Assembly: GCF_003018255.1 (NCBI RefSeq)
Contig: NZ_CP027440.1
Strand: one strand, 5' to 3'
Origin: Escherichia coli
Lineage (GTDB): Bacteria; Pseudomonadota; Gammaproteobacteria; Enterobacterales; Enterobacteriaceae
Length of the DNA stretch: 64,000 nucleotides
The position numbers and the translations under genes are program-made. Below are positions 17,866 through 20,599 of this stretch, piece after piece; position 1 is the first letter of the stretch; each line of letters begins with the position of its first letter. The notes beneath the pieces were generated by a model, which saw only the letters and a list, made by a program, of their open reading frames with translations, did no database searches and was not told the DNA's origin.

Positions 17866-18294
17866 TTAGTGCCACCACATCATGCCCTGAACGGTAGCTG
17901 CTGCAACTGCAACATAGCGTAACGCTTTACCAAGGCACAAAAAAAAGATTACCGGTCCCCACGAGATGCGCATCCATCCCGCTAACAGACACAGTAAATC
18001 GCCAACCACGGGCATCCAGCTTAATAATAGCGTGACTGCACCATAGCGTTTCAGCCAGCCGGTAGCTTTCTCTTGCCAGCGCGATGTTTTACGCAATGGA
18101 AAGAAACGCCCAAGGATAACGTTAGTTAACCCTCCAAGGCTATTACCCATTGTTGCTGTTAAAACTAAAACCCAGGGATGACTCACTCCGGAAAGCAACA
18201 TTGCCACCAGCACGACTTCGGAGTTGCCGGGTAATAGTGTAGCGCTGAGAAAACTACTGGCAAACAACGAGAAAAGCGATAACGCTTCACTCAC
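17866..18294 (-). CDS. yqaA: DedA/SNARE-associated-family inner membrane protein
   Basis: 142-aa hydrophobic ORF; recognised as YqaA. Confidence 0.85.
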   Translation of the reverse strand: MSEALSLFSLFASSFLSATLLPGNSEVVLVAMLLSGVSHPWVLVLTATMGNSLGGLTNVILGRFFPLRKTSRWQEKATGWLKRYGAVTLLLSWMPVVGDLLCLLAGWMRISWGPVIFFLCLGKALRYVAVAAATVQGMMWWH

Positions 18295-18857
18295 AGCAAG
18301 CGAACATCCACAGCGTCCATGCCTGCTGCACGGGCCGCCTGAATACCGAAATCGGCATCTTCAAAGACCACACACTGTGTCGGTTGCACGCCCATACGCT
18401 GCGCGCACAACAAAAATGTGTCTGGCGCGGGTTTATGGTGTTTGACGTGATCGGCAGCGACGACGGCGTCAAAATAACGGCGTAATCCCAGGTGTGCCAG
18501 CAATGCCTCAGCGATGGCGCTTTCACTCCCCGTTCCTACAGCCATTGGGCGACGACCATGCCAGCTTTTCACCACTTCAACAAGAGGAAGCGGCTCGACA
18601 CTATCCAGCAGCATACTTCTTACTGCTTCTGTTTTTTCACGCGCTAACGCATGCGGGTCGAGATCGGCCTGATTCAGCTCAATAATCGCCTGAGCAATAC
18701 GCCAGGTGGGCGAGCCATTAAGCGCAATCATCGCCTGAACATCGTACTGAAGACCGTAGTACCCTAATACTTCGCGCCACGCTTTACGGTGCGTAGGCTC
18801 GGTATCCAGGATGGTGCCATCCATATCAAAAATTAAACCTGCATAACGCTCGTACAT
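18291..18857 (-). CDS. yqaB: HAD-superfamily sugar phosphatase
   Basis: 188-aa ORF with HAD motif I FDMDGT; recognised as YqaB. Confidence 0.88.
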   Translation of the reverse strand: MYERYAGLIFDMDGTILDTEPTHRKAWREVLGYYGLQYDVQAMIALNGSPTWRIAQAIIELNQADLDPHALAREKTEAVRSMLLDSVEPLPLVEVVKSWHGRRPMAVGTGSESAIAEALLAHLGLRRYFDAVVAADHVKHHKPAPDTFLLCAQRMGVQPTQCVVFEDADFGIQAARAAGMDAVDVRLL

Positions 18858-19004
18858 GGTCTTCTCGCAAGTCGAAAAATATGACGCTACTTTAGCGTAA
18901 TTGCTTGATTTTGTCGCTGATGGAGAAGGAGAAGAAAATTCAGGAAATGGATAAAGTAGTTATTTAGAAATGAGATATTTTTGAAGGAAATTTTTTGGAG
19001 AAGA

Positions 19005-19137
19005 TGGTGCATCCGGGAGGATGACTCACTGGCGTTCGCCCTTCGGGCCGCTGCTGGCGCAACGTTATCCTCCCTGGTGCCTGCGGTTAATACCGCTACC
19101 TCTTCGATACCTTCATTGCTGAAGGTTACGGAGAATA
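19005..19137 (-). repeat. tRNA-Arg 3'-end-derived hairpin repeat (pseudo-tRNA fragment), copy 1
   Basis: Plus strand begins with the 17-nt tRNA-Arg 3' end incl. CCA (TGGTGCATCCGGGAGGA) then diverges into GGGAGGAT...ATCCTCCC inverted repeat; about 90% identical to copy at 19558-19691. Confidence 0.7.
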
Positions 19138-19214
19138 TGGTGCATCCGGGAGGATTCGAACCTCCGACCGCTCGGTTCGTAGCCGAGTACTCTATCCAGC
19201 TGAGCTACGGATGC
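19138..19214 (-). tRNA. argQ: tRNA-Arg (anticodon ACG)
   Basis: 77 nt; reverse complement matches remembered E. coli tRNA-Arg(ACG) incl. CCA; gene name by position is tentative. Confidence 0.9.
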
Positions 19215-19277
19215 ATTGGGAAAATTTATTTTACTGCTGATATTGATATCGCTACTAAAGCCATATCAAGTAAGAGA

Positions 19278-19354
19278 TGGTGCATCCGGGAGGATTCGAA
19301 CCTCCGACCGCTCGGTTCGTAGCCGAGTACTCTATCCAGCTGAGCTACGGATGC
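19278..19354 (-). tRNA. argZ: tRNA-Arg (anticodon ACG)
   Basis: Identical 77-nt copy; name by position tentative. Confidence 0.9.
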
Positions 19355-19416
19355 ATCGGGAAATTTATTTTACTGCTGATATTGATACCGCTACTAAAGC
19401 CATATCAAGTAAGAGA

Positions 19417-19493
19417 TGGTGCATCCGGGAGGATTCGAACCTCCGACCGCTCGGTTCGTAGCCGAGTACTCTATCCAGCTGAGCTACGGATGC
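19417..19493 (-). tRNA. argY: tRNA-Arg (anticodon ACG)
   Basis: Identical 77-nt copy; name by position tentative. Confidence 0.9.
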
Positions 19494-19557
19494 ATCTGGA
19501 AACTTACTTTACTGCAGATTTTTTGATACCGCTACTAAAGCCGTATCAAGTAAGAGA

Positions 19558-19691
19558 TGGTGCATCCGGGAGGATTACTCGCCTTGCGGCTCGCCCTTCG
19601 GGCCGTTGCTAAAGCAACGTTATCCTCCCTGGTGCCTGCGGTTATTACCGCCACCTCTTCCATACCTTCATCGCTGAAGGTACGTAGAATA
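19558..19691 (-). repeat. tRNA-Arg 3'-end-derived hairpin repeat (pseudo-tRNA fragment), copy 2
   Basis: Starts with TGGTGCATCCGGGAGGATT then diverges; same inverted-repeat core (cgcccttcgggcc ... atcctccc) as copy 1. Confidence 0.7.
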
Positions 19692-19768
19692 TGGTGCATC
19701 CGGGAGGATTCGAACCTCCGACCGCTCGGTTCGTAGCCGAGTACTCTATCCAGCTGAGCTACGGATGC
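19692..19768 (-). tRNA. argV: tRNA-Arg (anticodon ACG)
   Basis: Identical 77-nt copy; name by position tentative. Confidence 0.9.
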
Positions 19769-19771
19769 AAA

Positions 19772-19864
19772 TGGCGGTGAGGCGGGGATTCGAACCCCGG
19801 ATGCAGCTTTTGACCGCATACTCCCTTAGCAGGGGAGCGCCTTCAGCCTCTCGGCCACCTCACC
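19772..19864 (-). tRNA. serV: tRNA-Ser (anticodon GCU)
   Basis: 93 nt; reverse complement matches remembered tRNA-Ser(GCU) with long variable arm and CCA. Confidence 0.88.
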
Positions 19865-20145
19865 ACACGCCTCTTACGAGTGCTTCGAAGAACTTGTTTA
19901 TCGCTCATCGTCGCTGCGTGGCGCACATATTACTTTCTGAGACTTATAAGTCAAACAATTTTTCCCACACTTTTATCGTTTGCACACTTCACGCTCAATT
20001 AGTCTGTAAAAACGTCAAAAAGAGTGTTTTATCAACAGAAAAACGGAGGTCTGTCAGATAGCAGTAATGCAAAAAAATGGAGACTTAAGTTGAATGAACG
20101 GGAGTAAAGCGAAAAGACAATGGAGTGAAGAAGAAATTTTGAGGG

Positions 20146-20172
20146 TGCGTCTCACCGATAAAGATGAGACGC
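20146..20172 (-). terminator. hairpin downstream of csrA
   Basis: Inverted repeat GCGTCTCA / TGAGACGC directly 3' of the csrA stop. Confidence 0.5.
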
Positions 20173-20179
20173 GGAAAGA

Positions 20180-20365
20180 TTAGTAACTGGACTGCTGGGA
20201 TTTTTCAGCCTGGATACGCTGGTAGATCTCTTCACGGTGAACAGAAACTTCCTTCGGGGCATTTACGCCAATACGTACCTGGTTGCCCTTTACCCCTAAA
20301 ACTGTCACGGTGACCTCATCCCCAATCATGAGGGTCTCACCAACTCGACGAGTCAGAATCAGCAT
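20180..20365 (-). CDS. csrA: carbon storage regulator (RNA-binding global regulator)
   Basis: 61-aa [64 protein letters not shown]. Confidence 0.97.
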
Positions 20366-20599
20366 TCTTTGCTCCTTGAAAGATTAAAAGAGTCGGGTCT
20401 CTCTGTATCCCGGCATTATCCATCATATAACGCCAAAAAGTAAGCAATGACAAACACATTACATCTAAGCAGTCATGGCATTACATTCTGTTAAACCTAA
20501 GTTTAGCCGATATACACAACTTCAACCTGACTTTATCGTTGTCGATAGCGTTAATGCGAATGCCGTGAAGCGAGTCCACGGCATTGCCTGACGCTTATA

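Follow-up and report, generated by a model that had tools for sequence, protein, structure and literature searches.

The window, by which we mean the whole 64-kb stretch of DNA that was analysed, carries on its minus strand the serV-argV-argY-argZ-argQ operon, consisting of one tRNA-Ser(GCU) and four tRNA-Arg(ACG) genes, with yqaB on one side and csrA on the other. Pre-tRNA spacers and two tRNA-linked repeats (TLRs), referred to here as TLR-A and TLR-B, accompany the tRNA genes. In the direction in which the operon would be read, the features are the following:

20180..20365, minus strand: csrA, the upstream neighbour (ORF and annotation of a 100%-identical record).
19927..19954, minus strand: promoter-like site, candidate operon promoter (sigma-70 consensus scan; TTGACT, 16-nt spacer, TAATAT).
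19772..19864, minus strand: tRNA-Ser(GCU), serV, first gene of the operon, 93 nt, CCA encoded (ARAGORN; Rfam tRNA, 56.8 bits).
19692..19768, minus strand: tRNA-Arg(ACG) copy 1, argV position, 77 nt, CCA encoded (ARAGORN, Rfam).
19558..19691, minus strand: TLR-A, raV in EcoGene naming, 134 nt, beginning right behind the CCA of copy 1.
19494..19557, minus strand: pre-tRNA spacer of 64 nt, 'first-position' type (…GGTATCAAAAAATCTGCAG…), in which a hairpin is conserved (sequence and orthologues).
19417..19493, minus strand: tRNA-Arg(ACG) copy 2, argY position (ARAGORN, Rfam).
19355..19416, minus strand: pre-tRNA spacer of 62 nt, with the conserved hairpin GAUAUGGC…GCGGUAUC (sequence, fold, alignment).
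19278..19354, minus strand: tRNA-Arg(ACG) copy 3, argZ position (ARAGORN, Rfam).
19215..19277, minus strand: pre-tRNA spacer of 63 nt (sequence); K-12 has here 198 nt made up of the TLR raZ and a spacer.
19138..19214, minus strand: tRNA-Arg(ACG) copy 4, argQ position, last tRNA of the operon (ARAGORN, Rfam).
19005..19137, minus strand: TLR-B, raQ, 133 nt, adjoining the CCA of copy 4 without a gap and lying outside the segment covered by a preliminary description of this DNA.
18874..18898, minus strand: terminator-like hairpin and T-run, ACGCTAAAGTAGCGT CATATTTTTC, ~17 nt before the yqaB start codon (consensus scan).
18291..18857, minus strand: yqaB, sugar phosphatase, the downstream neighbour (ORF and annotation of the 100%-identical record).

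A stretch of 1801 nt matched E. coli JNE23-011 at 100%, in which the order luxS-gshA-yqaA-yqaB, four tRNA-Arg genes, tRNA-Ser, csrA-alaS is annotated. The K-12 annotation at this locus reads argQ, argZ, argY, argV, serV (b2691-b2695), and of 5426 complete E. coli genomes, 5425 have the array at this chromosomal location. The locus is a known and ordinary E. coli operon, treated as such in earlier work (PMC13170351), whose TLR layout varies among strains.

Consistent with the preliminary description, which had placed four sequence-identical 77-nt tRNA-Arg(ACG) genes at 19138-19768, all four were called by both ARAGORN and Rfam (RF00005, 67.1 bits each against a gathering score of 29), a script comparison found them 100% identical over 77 nt, and an exact-match search with the 77-nt sequence recovered all four K-12 genes argV/Y/Z/Q. 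The anticodon acg lies at position 35 (ARAGORN), and each gene ends in …GGATGCACCA, with CCA encoded. The serV gene, which bears that name in the K-12 annotation and is labelled tRNA-Ser in the 100%-identical record, is separated from copy 1 by 3 nt (TTT), and the gaps between successive Arg genes measure 198 nt (19494-19691), 62 nt (19355-19416) and 63 nt (19215-19277). Tandem Repeats Finder returned a period of 139 with 3.1 copies, 96% matches and a score of 797 (19137-19576), in line with the unit of ~139-140 bp that had been proposed; the 62- and 63-nt spacers, likewise said to be near-identical, share 95% identity and differ at three positions. The tandem pattern is not producible by chance. 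On the plus strand, an ARAGORN call of 'tRNA-Arg(tcg)' at 19677-19748 and Rfam matches to 'Plastid-ycf2' were dismissed as antisense mirror artefacts of the real tRNAs.

A single promoter upstream of serV would drive the operon on the minus strand, yielding one precursor that would comprise tRNA-Ser(GCU), the four identical tRNA-Arg(ACG) copies, the three short spacers and both TLRs. The promoter-like site at 19927..19954, our candidate for this promoter, was the only one returned by the consensus scan of 18800-20250, none being found between the tRNA genes; an A/T-rich stretch precedes it and a G+C-rich stretch follows. At the other end, the consensus scan found no terminator-like site between copy 4 and TLR-B, and the hairpin at 18874..18898 is a candidate for the end of the operon, on evidence that is weak because one such site was found versus 1.3 expected in shuffles, a count not above expectation. 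Processing of E. coli polycistronic tRNA transcripts by RNase E, RNase P and 3′ exonucleases is established. General tRNA-processing enzymes would cut the present precursor into mature tRNAs, with RNase E or RNase P cleaving in the spacers, RNase P producing the 5′ ends, and exonucleases trimming the 3′ ends to the encoded CCA.

The products of the K-12 operon are tRNA-Ser3 and four copies of tRNA-Arg2, the A34 of which is edited to inosine by TadA. The four identical copies would serve the supply of tRNA-Arg2, the major arginine isoacceptor. In K-12, deletion of argYZQ lowered tRNA-Arg2 16.1-fold and led to a growth defect in rich medium, and duplication of the serV-argVYZQ operon raised tRNA-Arg2 2.4-fold (PMC13170351). 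A comparison of copy number across strains, as had been suggested, gave three or four tRNA-Arg genes at the locus and a variable layout among the 17 E. coli strains sampled; this gene number bears on dosage studies of TadA editing and rich-medium growth.

Compared to serV-argVYZQ of K-12, the window operon does not differ in position, gene order or strand, nor in the 77-nt tRNA-Arg and 93-nt tRNA-Ser genes or the 3-nt gap between serV and argV, and it shares with K-12 the first gap of 198 nt, the second of 62 nt and the terminal 280 nt. The third gap, in contrast, measures 198 nt in K-12 and 63 nt in the window, which is devoid of raZ and carries two TLRs to K-12's three. The window operon is a structural variant of the K-12 operon, with a spacing of 198/62/63 versus 198/62/198 nt.

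The part of the locus worth keeping is its TLRs, the Arg-linked copies being below the Rfam threshold, unannotated, and conserved across Enterobacterales with compensatory changes. E. coli TLRs were reportedly treated by Egan & Landy in 1978 and by Rudd in 1999, and to our knowledge TLRs have been without an assigned function since 1978. By the published definition the 3′-terminal 18-19 nt of a TLR repeat those of the gene that precedes it, and K-12 harbors 22 copies at 10 loci, comprising raV, raZ and raQ (the Arg-locus TLRs in the strain list of the supplement), the Lys-linked rt, the Tyr-linked rtT and rtV1-3 (= RttR), and the 5S-linked rrA, rrB and rrF (PMC8144298). Both window elements belong to this family: each lies directly 3′ of a tRNA, shows homology to other TLRs and ends in a copy of the tRNA-Arg 3′ end, of 19 nt in TLR-A (AATCCTCCCGGATGCACCA) and of 18 nt in TLR-B. 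Arg-linked TLRs thus resemble other E. coli TLRs in being located directly 3′ of a tRNA in an operon, in their 18-19-nt identical 3′ end and in a shared core. This core, AACGUUGC-N4-GCAACGGCCCGAAGGGCGA (also written AACGTTGC-N4-GCAACGGCCCGAAGGGCGA), was common to the Arg-, Lys-, Tyr- and 5S-linked TLRs upon alignment, and over ~50 nt it follows tRNA-Arg, tRNA-Lys, tRNA-Tyr and 5S rRNA genes.

The Rfam model RtT (RF00391), made from repeats of the tyrT operon, gave 133-137 bits to the K-12 Tyr copies, 47-60 to the Lys copies and 23.5-29.2 to the window TLRs (29.2 for TLR-A, 23.5-25.8 for TLR-B; E = 0.0067 and 0.0023 for the matches of the two), against a gathering score of 45. The 3′ half of the Arg TLR aligned to the RtT consensus AACGuuGCg..AGCgaCGGCCCGAAGGGCGA … GAGUaAUCCu.C. 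A covariance model built in this work from 59 Arg-linked TLRs scored 151.8 bits for TLR-A and 127.8 bits for TLR-B and found no further TLR in the 64-kb window. Applied to K-12, it reached 58-70 bits on the Lys TLRs (E about 1e-12 to 1e-14) and 26-28 bits on the Tyr TLRs (E about 1e-4), the Lys class being closer to the Arg-linked repeats than the Tyr class, whose members are also longer (about 178 nt versus about 134 nt). Arg-linked TLRs fall below 45 bits with RtT, though homologous by other tests, and because of these scores Rfam-based annotation leaves them unlabelled; in RefSeq, neither the 100%-identical record nor K-12 has an annotated feature at the TLR positions.

The minimum free energy (MFE) predicted for TLR-A was -62.5 kcal/mol (z = -5.98), and that for TLR-B -55.7 kcal/mol (z = -4.95). 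In the TLR alignment, 87.3% of cells were paired in the tested structure versus 33-46% in slid controls, a contrast inflated by the tested structure being the single-sequence MFE of one alignment member, and two-sided changes occupied 143 cells versus 60.6 in shuffles, none of 500 shuffles reaching the observed value. Compensatory changes in several helices across Enterobacterales indicate, at the level of the alignment, selection on RNA structure.

The last 78 nt of the TLR are predicted to fold into three small hairpins closed off by a helix that resembles an acceptor/T arm. In this 13-bp helix, GCACC-A-GGGAGGAU / AUCCUCCC-GG-A-UGC followed by ACCA, the internal strand is predicted to pair with the duplicated 3′ end such that ACCA alone is single-stranded. 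An RNAalifold consensus of the 59 TLRs returned local hairpins only and did not recover the long-range helix; this helix has no freedom to covary among Arg TLRs, as its 3′ strand is dictated by the tRNA sequence and was required by the pattern with which these elements were searched for. By class, its strands are GGGAGGAU/AUCCUCCC (Arg), GGGGAAGGAU/AUCCUUCCCC (Tyr) and CGUG(U/A)AGGAU/AUCCUGCACG (Lys), and this match of the internal strand to the carried 3′ end, class by class, predicts a tRNA-like acceptor helix. Whereas the helix predicted for the Lys and Tyr classes leaves 8 nt free, that of the Arg class covers the whole acceptor strand with only ACCA free. Some E. coli TLR variants are mismatched in the long-range helix (GGAAGGAU, GGGAUGAU). 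The pairing rule is claimed for the tRNA-linked classes only, since no internal complement of the 3′ end was evident in the 5S-linked TLR rrB.

Minihelices made of the tRNA acceptor and T arm are model substrates for RNase P, the CCA-adding enzyme and EF-Tu. The predicted TLR helix mirrors the 7-bp acceptor on the 5-bp T stem of tRNA-Arg and has the same 3′ strand; in the TLR, however, a 46-nt insert of three small hairpins replaces the 7-nt T loop and two single-base irregularities break the helix, and there is neither an anticodon arm nor a D arm. The TLRs were not called as tRNA by ARAGORN or the Rfam tRNA model. One speculative reading, to which we would give a small share of belief, is that Arg-linked TLRs are functional tRNA mimics, the tRNA machinery releasing from them a tRNA-sized, ACCA-ended 78-nt fold that would act as a growth-rate-coupled decoy or sensor. 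Here, the duplicated 3′ end and a co-evolving internal strand would make up the helix, RNase P would release the fold on the 5′ side and RNase E with exonucleases on the 3′ side, and the factors addressed would be those recognising the tRNA acceptor end. Were this true, TLRs would be spread and removed by gene conversion, and E. coli strains would represent natural knock-outs and knock-ins for each position.

Other candidate roles were rejected. Coding potential, an idea suggested by tpr of the tyrT repeats, came down to a 32-aa TTG-initiated ORF (18964-19062) overlapping TLR-B and was discarded because the same frame is closed by TAG in TLR-A and most variants (TTGCTTTAGCAACGG). The start of TLR-A (UAUUCUACGUA) has UACG, as might be expected of a mimic of the TadA substrate; this idea was abandoned because UACG lies outside the hairpin loops of the predicted fold and is missing from most variants (UCUCCGUA). 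Titration of CsrA, an idea taken from the neighbouring csrA and from work on rrA/B/F, was likewise not retained: the GGA motifs of the present TLRs sit inside a helix, and the predicted CsrA binding probability is <0.01 for all tRNA-linked TLRs, unlike rrA/B/F (PMC8144298).

To compare TLR layouts, 17 individual E. coli loci were parsed, for which reason population frequencies are only rough. These 17 genomes displayed nine patterns of TLR occupancy, and at every array position the presence or absence of a TLR was a precise indel: a 198-nt gap with a TLR consists of the 134-nt TLR and a 64-nt spacer, and this very spacer makes up the whole gap where the TLR is missing. TLR-A is precisely absent from M1/5, R14, O55:H7 and others; TLR-B is precisely absent from DETEC-P649, with a terminal gap of 147 nt as opposed to 280, and strain 98192 has a TLR-B with an internal deletion. 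For each TLR there is a natural strain that does without it, and the TLR copies are mosaic with respect to one another. Upon BLAST comparison of 18600-20400 with all complete E. coli genomes (60 evenly spaced rows examined), 243 of 5425 genomes matched at least 80% of the segment in one piece, a rough frequency on account of which the window layout is considered a minority one; BLAST spans are unusable as layouts because the repeats make pieces join inconsistently.

[quoted passage not shown] The clean presence or absence of TLRs among E. coli strains provides ready isogenic-like material to test TLR RNAs.

The same anatomy could also be read as the scar of site-specific integration, TLRs then being degraded remnants without RNA function. 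A full tRNA, an insert of ~115 nt and an 18-19-nt copy of the tRNA 3′ end do reproduce the anatomy of attL/attR, the indels are bounded by precisely those repeats, and each copy is dispensable in some strain. A strain without all 22 TLRs is moreover listed as constructed (PMC8144298, supplement) and, together with the natural absences, argues against an essential function. A scar, however, accounts poorly for the same ~50-nt core following genes as different as those of tRNA-Arg, tRNA-Lys, tRNA-Tyr and 5S rRNA, for up to four copies in one operon, and for order-wide conservation with compensatory changes in several helices; neither ORFs nor annotation revealed an integrase or other gene in or adjoining the element, and a decaying scar would not keep an internal strand that fits the carried 3′ end. 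We thus consider this origin improbable. The explanation of the whole that we hold to be very probably correct is that of a single-promoter serV-argVYZQ precursor, with tRNA-Arg dosage, conserved spacers, and TLRs moved by recombination.

As to the spacers in this explanation, the 64-nt segment inside the 198-nt gap is a third spacer copy, 84-88% identical to the other two, and the spacer hairpin displayed covariation at 6 of 7 pairs in an alignment of 34 sequences. The first-position type is orthologous among Escherichia, Salmonella, Klebsiella and Citrobacter, with 83-98% identity, whereas the later spacers had a mean identity of 0.895 within genomes versus 0.72 between genomes. The similarity of the spacers would reflect their conservation as hairpin-forming portions of the precursor, with exchange between identical tRNA genes, by unequal crossing-over or gene conversion, keeping the internal units uniform as well. 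Concerted evolution, one of the two origins put forward in the preliminary description, is supported in part, in that the later spacers fit it and the TLR copies are mosaic.

The other proposed origin, a recent tandem duplication of the 139-140-bp unit in this strain or lineage, would make identity a sign of youth. Copies 2-4 with their spacers do form a period-139 tandem repeat with 96% matches, the 62- and 63-nt spacers differ at those three positions only, and the presence of three or four copies depending on the strain suggests that units are gained and lost on the timescale of the species. Against this, 74 of 75 tRNA-Arg(ACG) genes from 24 loci in about 17 genera of Enterobacterales have the same exact 77-nt sequence, and identity is therefore uninformative on age; it is moreover normal for isoacceptor gene families in enterobacteria and has little weight by itself. 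Salmonella, Klebsiella, Citrobacter, Enterobacter and others likewise have 3-5 tRNA-Arg genes in an array, separated by 59-65-nt spacers that belong to the same family, and the 64-, 62- and 63-nt spacer types recur at the same positions, in the same order, in unrelated E. coli strains of different phylogroups. A recent duplication is thus very improbable. Given the same 77 nt across genera, the fixed chromosomal location and the orthologous first spacer, copy identity reflects, as judged from these comparisons, purifying selection on an old array.

The resemblance to a CRISPR array pointed out in the preliminary description holds visually, with 77-nt repeats and ~62-nt spacers, and as a CRISPR-like or other defence array the locus deserves practically no credence, the repeats being bona fide tRNA genes (ARAGORN, Rfam), the spacers being 84-95% identical instead of unique and conserved across genera, and the flanks, within 3 kb on either side, holding luxS, gshA, yqaA, yqaB, csrA and alaS and no cas genes.

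The third spacer copy, the second repeat family at 19558-19691 and 19005-19137 (the TLRs) and the tRNA-Ser(GCU) are additions to that description, and the spacer quoted in it is the reverse complement of the transcript, the genes being on the minus strand.

The tRNA array in the window is the known serV-argVYZQ operon, present here as a structural variant without raZ, and no new kind of system is found at the locus. The four tandem tRNA-Arg(ACG) genes claimed in the preliminary description were confirmed by ARAGORN and by the Rfam tRNA model (67.1 bits each, threshold 29 bits), and a script comparison found all four 77-nt sequences identical, with CCA encoded at the 3' end. Their tandem regularity was also recovered by Tandem Repeats Finder (19137-19576: period 139, 3.1 copies, 96% matches). 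Copies and spacing had thus been described correctly, but the minus-strand orientation, a third spacer copy inside the 198-nt gap and a second repeat family, the tRNA-linked repeats (TLRs), had all been overlooked; the suggested likeness to a CRISPR array is one of visual regularity, with nothing beyond appearance. The features, in the direction of transcription, are as follows.

19954-19927, minus strand: candidate sigma-70-like site TTGACT-16-TAATAT upstream of serV, the only one found (consensus match only)
19772-19864, minus strand: tRNA-Ser(GCU) (ARAGORN)
19692-19768, minus strand: tRNA-Arg(ACG) copy 1 (ARAGORN; Rfam tRNA 67.1 bits)
19691 down to 19558, minus strand: TLR-A, 134 nt, after copy 1
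19417-19493, minus strand: tRNA-Arg(ACG) copy 2 (ARAGORN; Rfam tRNA 67.1 bits)
19278-19354, minus strand: tRNA-Arg(ACG) copy 3 (ARAGORN; Rfam tRNA 67.1 bits)
19138-19214, minus strand: tRNA-Arg(ACG) copy 4 (ARAGORN; Rfam tRNA 67.1 bits)
19137 down to 19005, minus strand: TLR-B, 133 nt, after copy 4
18898-18874, minus strand: candidate terminator-like hairpin directly before yqaB, the only one found (consensus match only)

On the transcribed strand, consecutive Arg genes are followed by gaps of 198, 62 and 63 nt and then by 280 nt up to the yqaB start codon; a consensus scan found no sigma-70-like sites between the tRNA genes. Of 5426 complete E. coli genomes searched by megablast, 5425 contain the region. 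The record of strain JNE23-011, identical at 100% over 1801 nt, is annotated in the order luxS-gshA-yqaA-yqaB, four tRNA-Arg, tRNA-Ser, csrA, alaS; in K-12 MG1655, whose tRNA-Arg sequence does not differ from that of the window, these tRNA genes are named argQ, argZ, argY, argV and serV. Plus-strand calls, a tRNA-Arg(tcg) at 19677-19748 (ARAGORN) and 'Plastid-ycf2' hits within 19140-19768 (Rfam, 33.4 bits; threshold 65.7), were rejected as mirror artefacts antisense to the real tRNA genes, arising from near-palindromic tRNA arms. In a 2026 study that handled serV-argVYZQ as an operon, deletion of argYZQ lowered tRNA-Arg2 16.1-fold and caused a growth defect in rich medium, while duplication of the operon raised tRNA-Arg2 2.4-fold (PMC13170351); the four Arg copies thus serve the gene dosage of the major arginine isoacceptor.

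The regularity of the array had been taken to indicate recent tandem duplication or concerted evolution. A pattern describing the TLR 3' domain, run against a single genome for each species, returned 29 loci, all from Enterobacterales (Escherichia, Salmonella, Citrobacter, Klebsiella, Enterobacter, Kosakonia, Lelliottia, Pluralibacter, Silvania, Phytobacter, Kluyvera, Huaxiibacter, Pantoea, Erwinia, Brenneria and Pectobacterium). At these loci 74 of 75 tRNA-Arg(ACG) genes were identical to those of the window across all 77 nt, the search having pre-set nucleotides 1-15 and the last 17 and left the middle 45 free. The short inter-tRNA spacers (19215-19277, 19355-19416 and 19494-19557, minus strand) were likewise conserved across genera, from Escherichia to Klebsiella and Enterobacter. 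Together these observations argue against recent duplication and for an old array whose tRNA sequence is frozen by selection. Concerted evolution held for part of the array: later spacers were more alike within a genome than between genomes (mean identity 0.895 for n=14 pairs versus 0.72 for n=217), indicating that the internal units evolve in concert, but the first-position spacer type (...AAAAAAUCUGCAG...) retained 83-98% identity among E. coli, Salmonella, Klebsiella and Citrobacter, values equal to or higher than its 84-88% identity to the other two spacers of the window. The spacer hairpin GAUAYGGC...GCGRUAUC showed compensatory changes at six of seven pairs in a 34-sequence alignment. 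An outer pairing, CUUACUU...AAGUAAG, is also predicted by the minimum free energy (MFE) fold and by eye apparently covaries (UUGCUU...AAGCAA in Citrobacter); hairpin and outer pairing may form a processing signal in the precursor.

The two additional elements are the known TLRs raV (TLR-A) and raQ (TLR-B). In K-12 the TLR family comprises 22 copies at ten loci, with no known function, each copy carrying 18-19 nt of the 3' end of the upstream gene (PMC8144298); the supplementary strain list of that study contains the Arg-locus names raV, raZ and raQ as well as a strain with all 22 TLRs deleted. TLR-A and TLR-B are related to each other, both start with UAUUCU, and they end in the last 19 nt (AAUCCUCCCGGAUGCACCA) and last 18 nt (AUCCUCCCGGAUGCACCA) of the tRNA, respectively. 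The Rfam RtT model aligned to their 3' halves at 29.2 bits (TLR-A) and 23.5-25.8 bits (TLR-B), below its gathering score of 45, which is why Arg-linked TLRs slip past Rfam annotation and why the JNE23-011 and K-12 records show no feature at these positions; in K-12 the four tyrT-operon repeats scored 133-137 bits, six Lys-linked repeats 47-60 and those of the Arg locus 29-31. A core, AACGTTGC-N4-GCAACGGCCCGAAGGGCGA, is common to Arg-, Lys-, Tyr- and 5S-linked elements, and a covariance model based on 59 distinct Arg-linked TLRs gave 58-70 bits for Lys TLRs and 26-28 bits for Tyr TLRs. Both results directly support homology. This model found no TLRs in the 64-kb window besides TLR-A and TLR-B. 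Terminal Lys-linked TLRs of K-12 (L050, 1030-1185, after lysV; L051, 1854-2009, after lysQ) have a strong intrinsic terminator hairpin at their start, AAAAAAGCGCCCTAAAGGCGCTTTTTT, and so sit downstream of the operon terminator, as do the 5S-linked TLRs, which lie between T1 and T2. At the Arg locus, in contrast, the consensus scan found no terminator ahead of the terminal TLR. A 32-aa TTG-initiated ORF (MRQQRPEGRTPVSHPPGCTIFSKKFPSKISHF; 18964-19062, minus strand) overlapping TLR-B is probably non-coding, its frame being closed in TLR-A and most variants; its position is analogous to that of the 'protamine-like' tpr ORF of tyrT repeats.

Both TLRs were predicted to fold far more stably than shuffled sequences (TLR-A, MFE -62.5 kcal/mol, z = -5.98; TLR-B, -55.7 kcal/mol, z = -4.95) into a 5' hairpin, a second hairpin and a long-range helix enclosing three small hairpins that correspond to the conserved core. 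In the long-range helix, GCACC-A-GGGAGGAU would pair with AUCCUCCC-GG-A-UGC, the duplicated tRNA 3' end, leaving ACCA alone unpaired. In the 59-sequence alignment 87.3% of cells were paired, against 33-46% with slid partners, and both sides had changed in 143 cells against 60.6 in shuffles, none of 500 shuffles reaching the observed value. Arg-linked TLRs occur throughout Enterobacterales with structural covariation, which was located in the 5' hairpin and the second hairpin and, among the small hairpins, in the first of the core and in the last (CG:28 versus GC:28 at one pair). The long-range helix, paired at 95.5% in the Arg class, cannot covary within it because one strand is tRNA sequence, but does so across classes: GGGGAAGGAU with AUCCUUCCCC in Tyr, CGUG(U/A)AGGAU with AUCCUGCACG in Lys. 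Each of these three tRNA-linked classes thus has an internal strand complementary to the particular 3' end that it duplicates, predicted to yield a tRNA-like helix. The internal strand is in effect the tRNA's 5' acceptor strand joined to its T-stem 5' strand, so that the last 78 nt resemble an acceptor/T 'minihelix' with the core in place of the T loop. Such minihelices are substrates of RNase P and other enzymes recognising the acceptor end, and the TLR may be cut out of the precursor by the tRNA-processing machinery.

TLR occupancy proved polymorphic when the yqaB-csrA interval was parsed in 17 E. coli genomes, with three or four Arg genes in every sampled strain.

Layouts of the array; gap lengths (nt) follow each Arg gene, the last being to yqaB.
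Window, JNE23-011: 4 Arg genes; 198, 62, 63, 280
K-12: 4 Arg genes; 198, 62, 198, 280
M1/5, AVS0096: 3 Arg genes; 64, 63, 280
ETEC4067: 3 Arg genes; 64, 198, 280
R14, FDAARGOS_1259: 4 Arg genes; 64, 62, 63, 280
F1 E4, O55:H7 DEC5A: 4 Arg genes; 64, 62, 102, 280
DETEC-P649: 4 Arg genes; 198, 62, 102, 147
98192: 4 Arg genes; 198, 62, 102, 210
ECO_1_S, TC_EC10: 4 Arg genes; 198, 197, 198, 279
ZF34: 4 Arg genes; 198, 196, 198, 280
PS2Canimalfeces3: 4 Arg genes; 197, 198, 198, 280

The 198-nt gap is exactly a 134-nt TLR followed by the 64-nt spacer found alone in TLR-less strains, and the 147-nt terminal gap exactly the 280-nt gap less a 133-nt TLR. Strains with and without a given TLR thus differ by a precise indel whose boundaries are set by the directly repeated tRNA 3' end, and such indels are seen at all four array positions. 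The 210-nt terminal gap (98192, locus L009) reflects a 70-nt TLR-internal deletion between two GCACCA motifs; the 102-nt third gap (loci L008, L009, L013 and L015) holds a 40-nt 5' TLR remnant (UAUUCUCCGUAAUCAUCAGUGAUGAUGGUUAAGAUGGAUUU) plus spacer, without the tRNA 3' end copy, a remnant common to O55:H7/O157-like and other lineages. TLR copies were also mosaic, K-12 raZ joining a 5' half of the terminal type to a 3' half of the first type and the O55:H7 terminal TLR combining three types. Strains sharing one YqaB protein (WP_000273309.1) showed five different layouts. The layout of the window is uncommon, as only 243 of 5425 genomes matched 80% or more of 18600-20400 as a single piece and, in a BLAST of this interval against complete E. 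coli genomes, two of 60 evenly spaced matches were full-length.

To the left of each TLR lies the identical 77-nt tRNA gene; to the right come its own 18-19-nt tRNA-end copy and then the spacer, and all spacers open with the same ~14 nt (UCUCUUACUUGAUA). This anatomy suggests two processes. Slippage or recombination between the two tRNA 3' end copies would remove a TLR precisely, and gene conversion, with homology arms provided by the tRNA and the start of the spacer, would copy one into an empty position while retaining the position-specific rest of the spacer; both fit the strain layouts. Any role of TLRs is non-essential, given that natural strains each lack some TLR and a strain deleted for all 22 is listed.

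Two genomes departed from the common context. In BL21(RP) (L017, NZ_CP084683.1 3923409-3927600), yjcO and fdhF come after yqaB in place of the tRNA array and csrA, and this stretch lacks an exact tRNA-Arg(ACG) copy. This suggests an inversion or rearrangement that broke the locus within or beside the array, or else a faulty assembly. In IH5 (L052, NZ_CP168269.1, 5667-6173), serV and a single tRNA-Arg adjoin a truncated gene for phage minor tail protein L, beyond which lies a full tail-gene set, and the remaining Arg array and yqaB are absent from the junction; this could be an array-prophage rearrangement or a misassembly.
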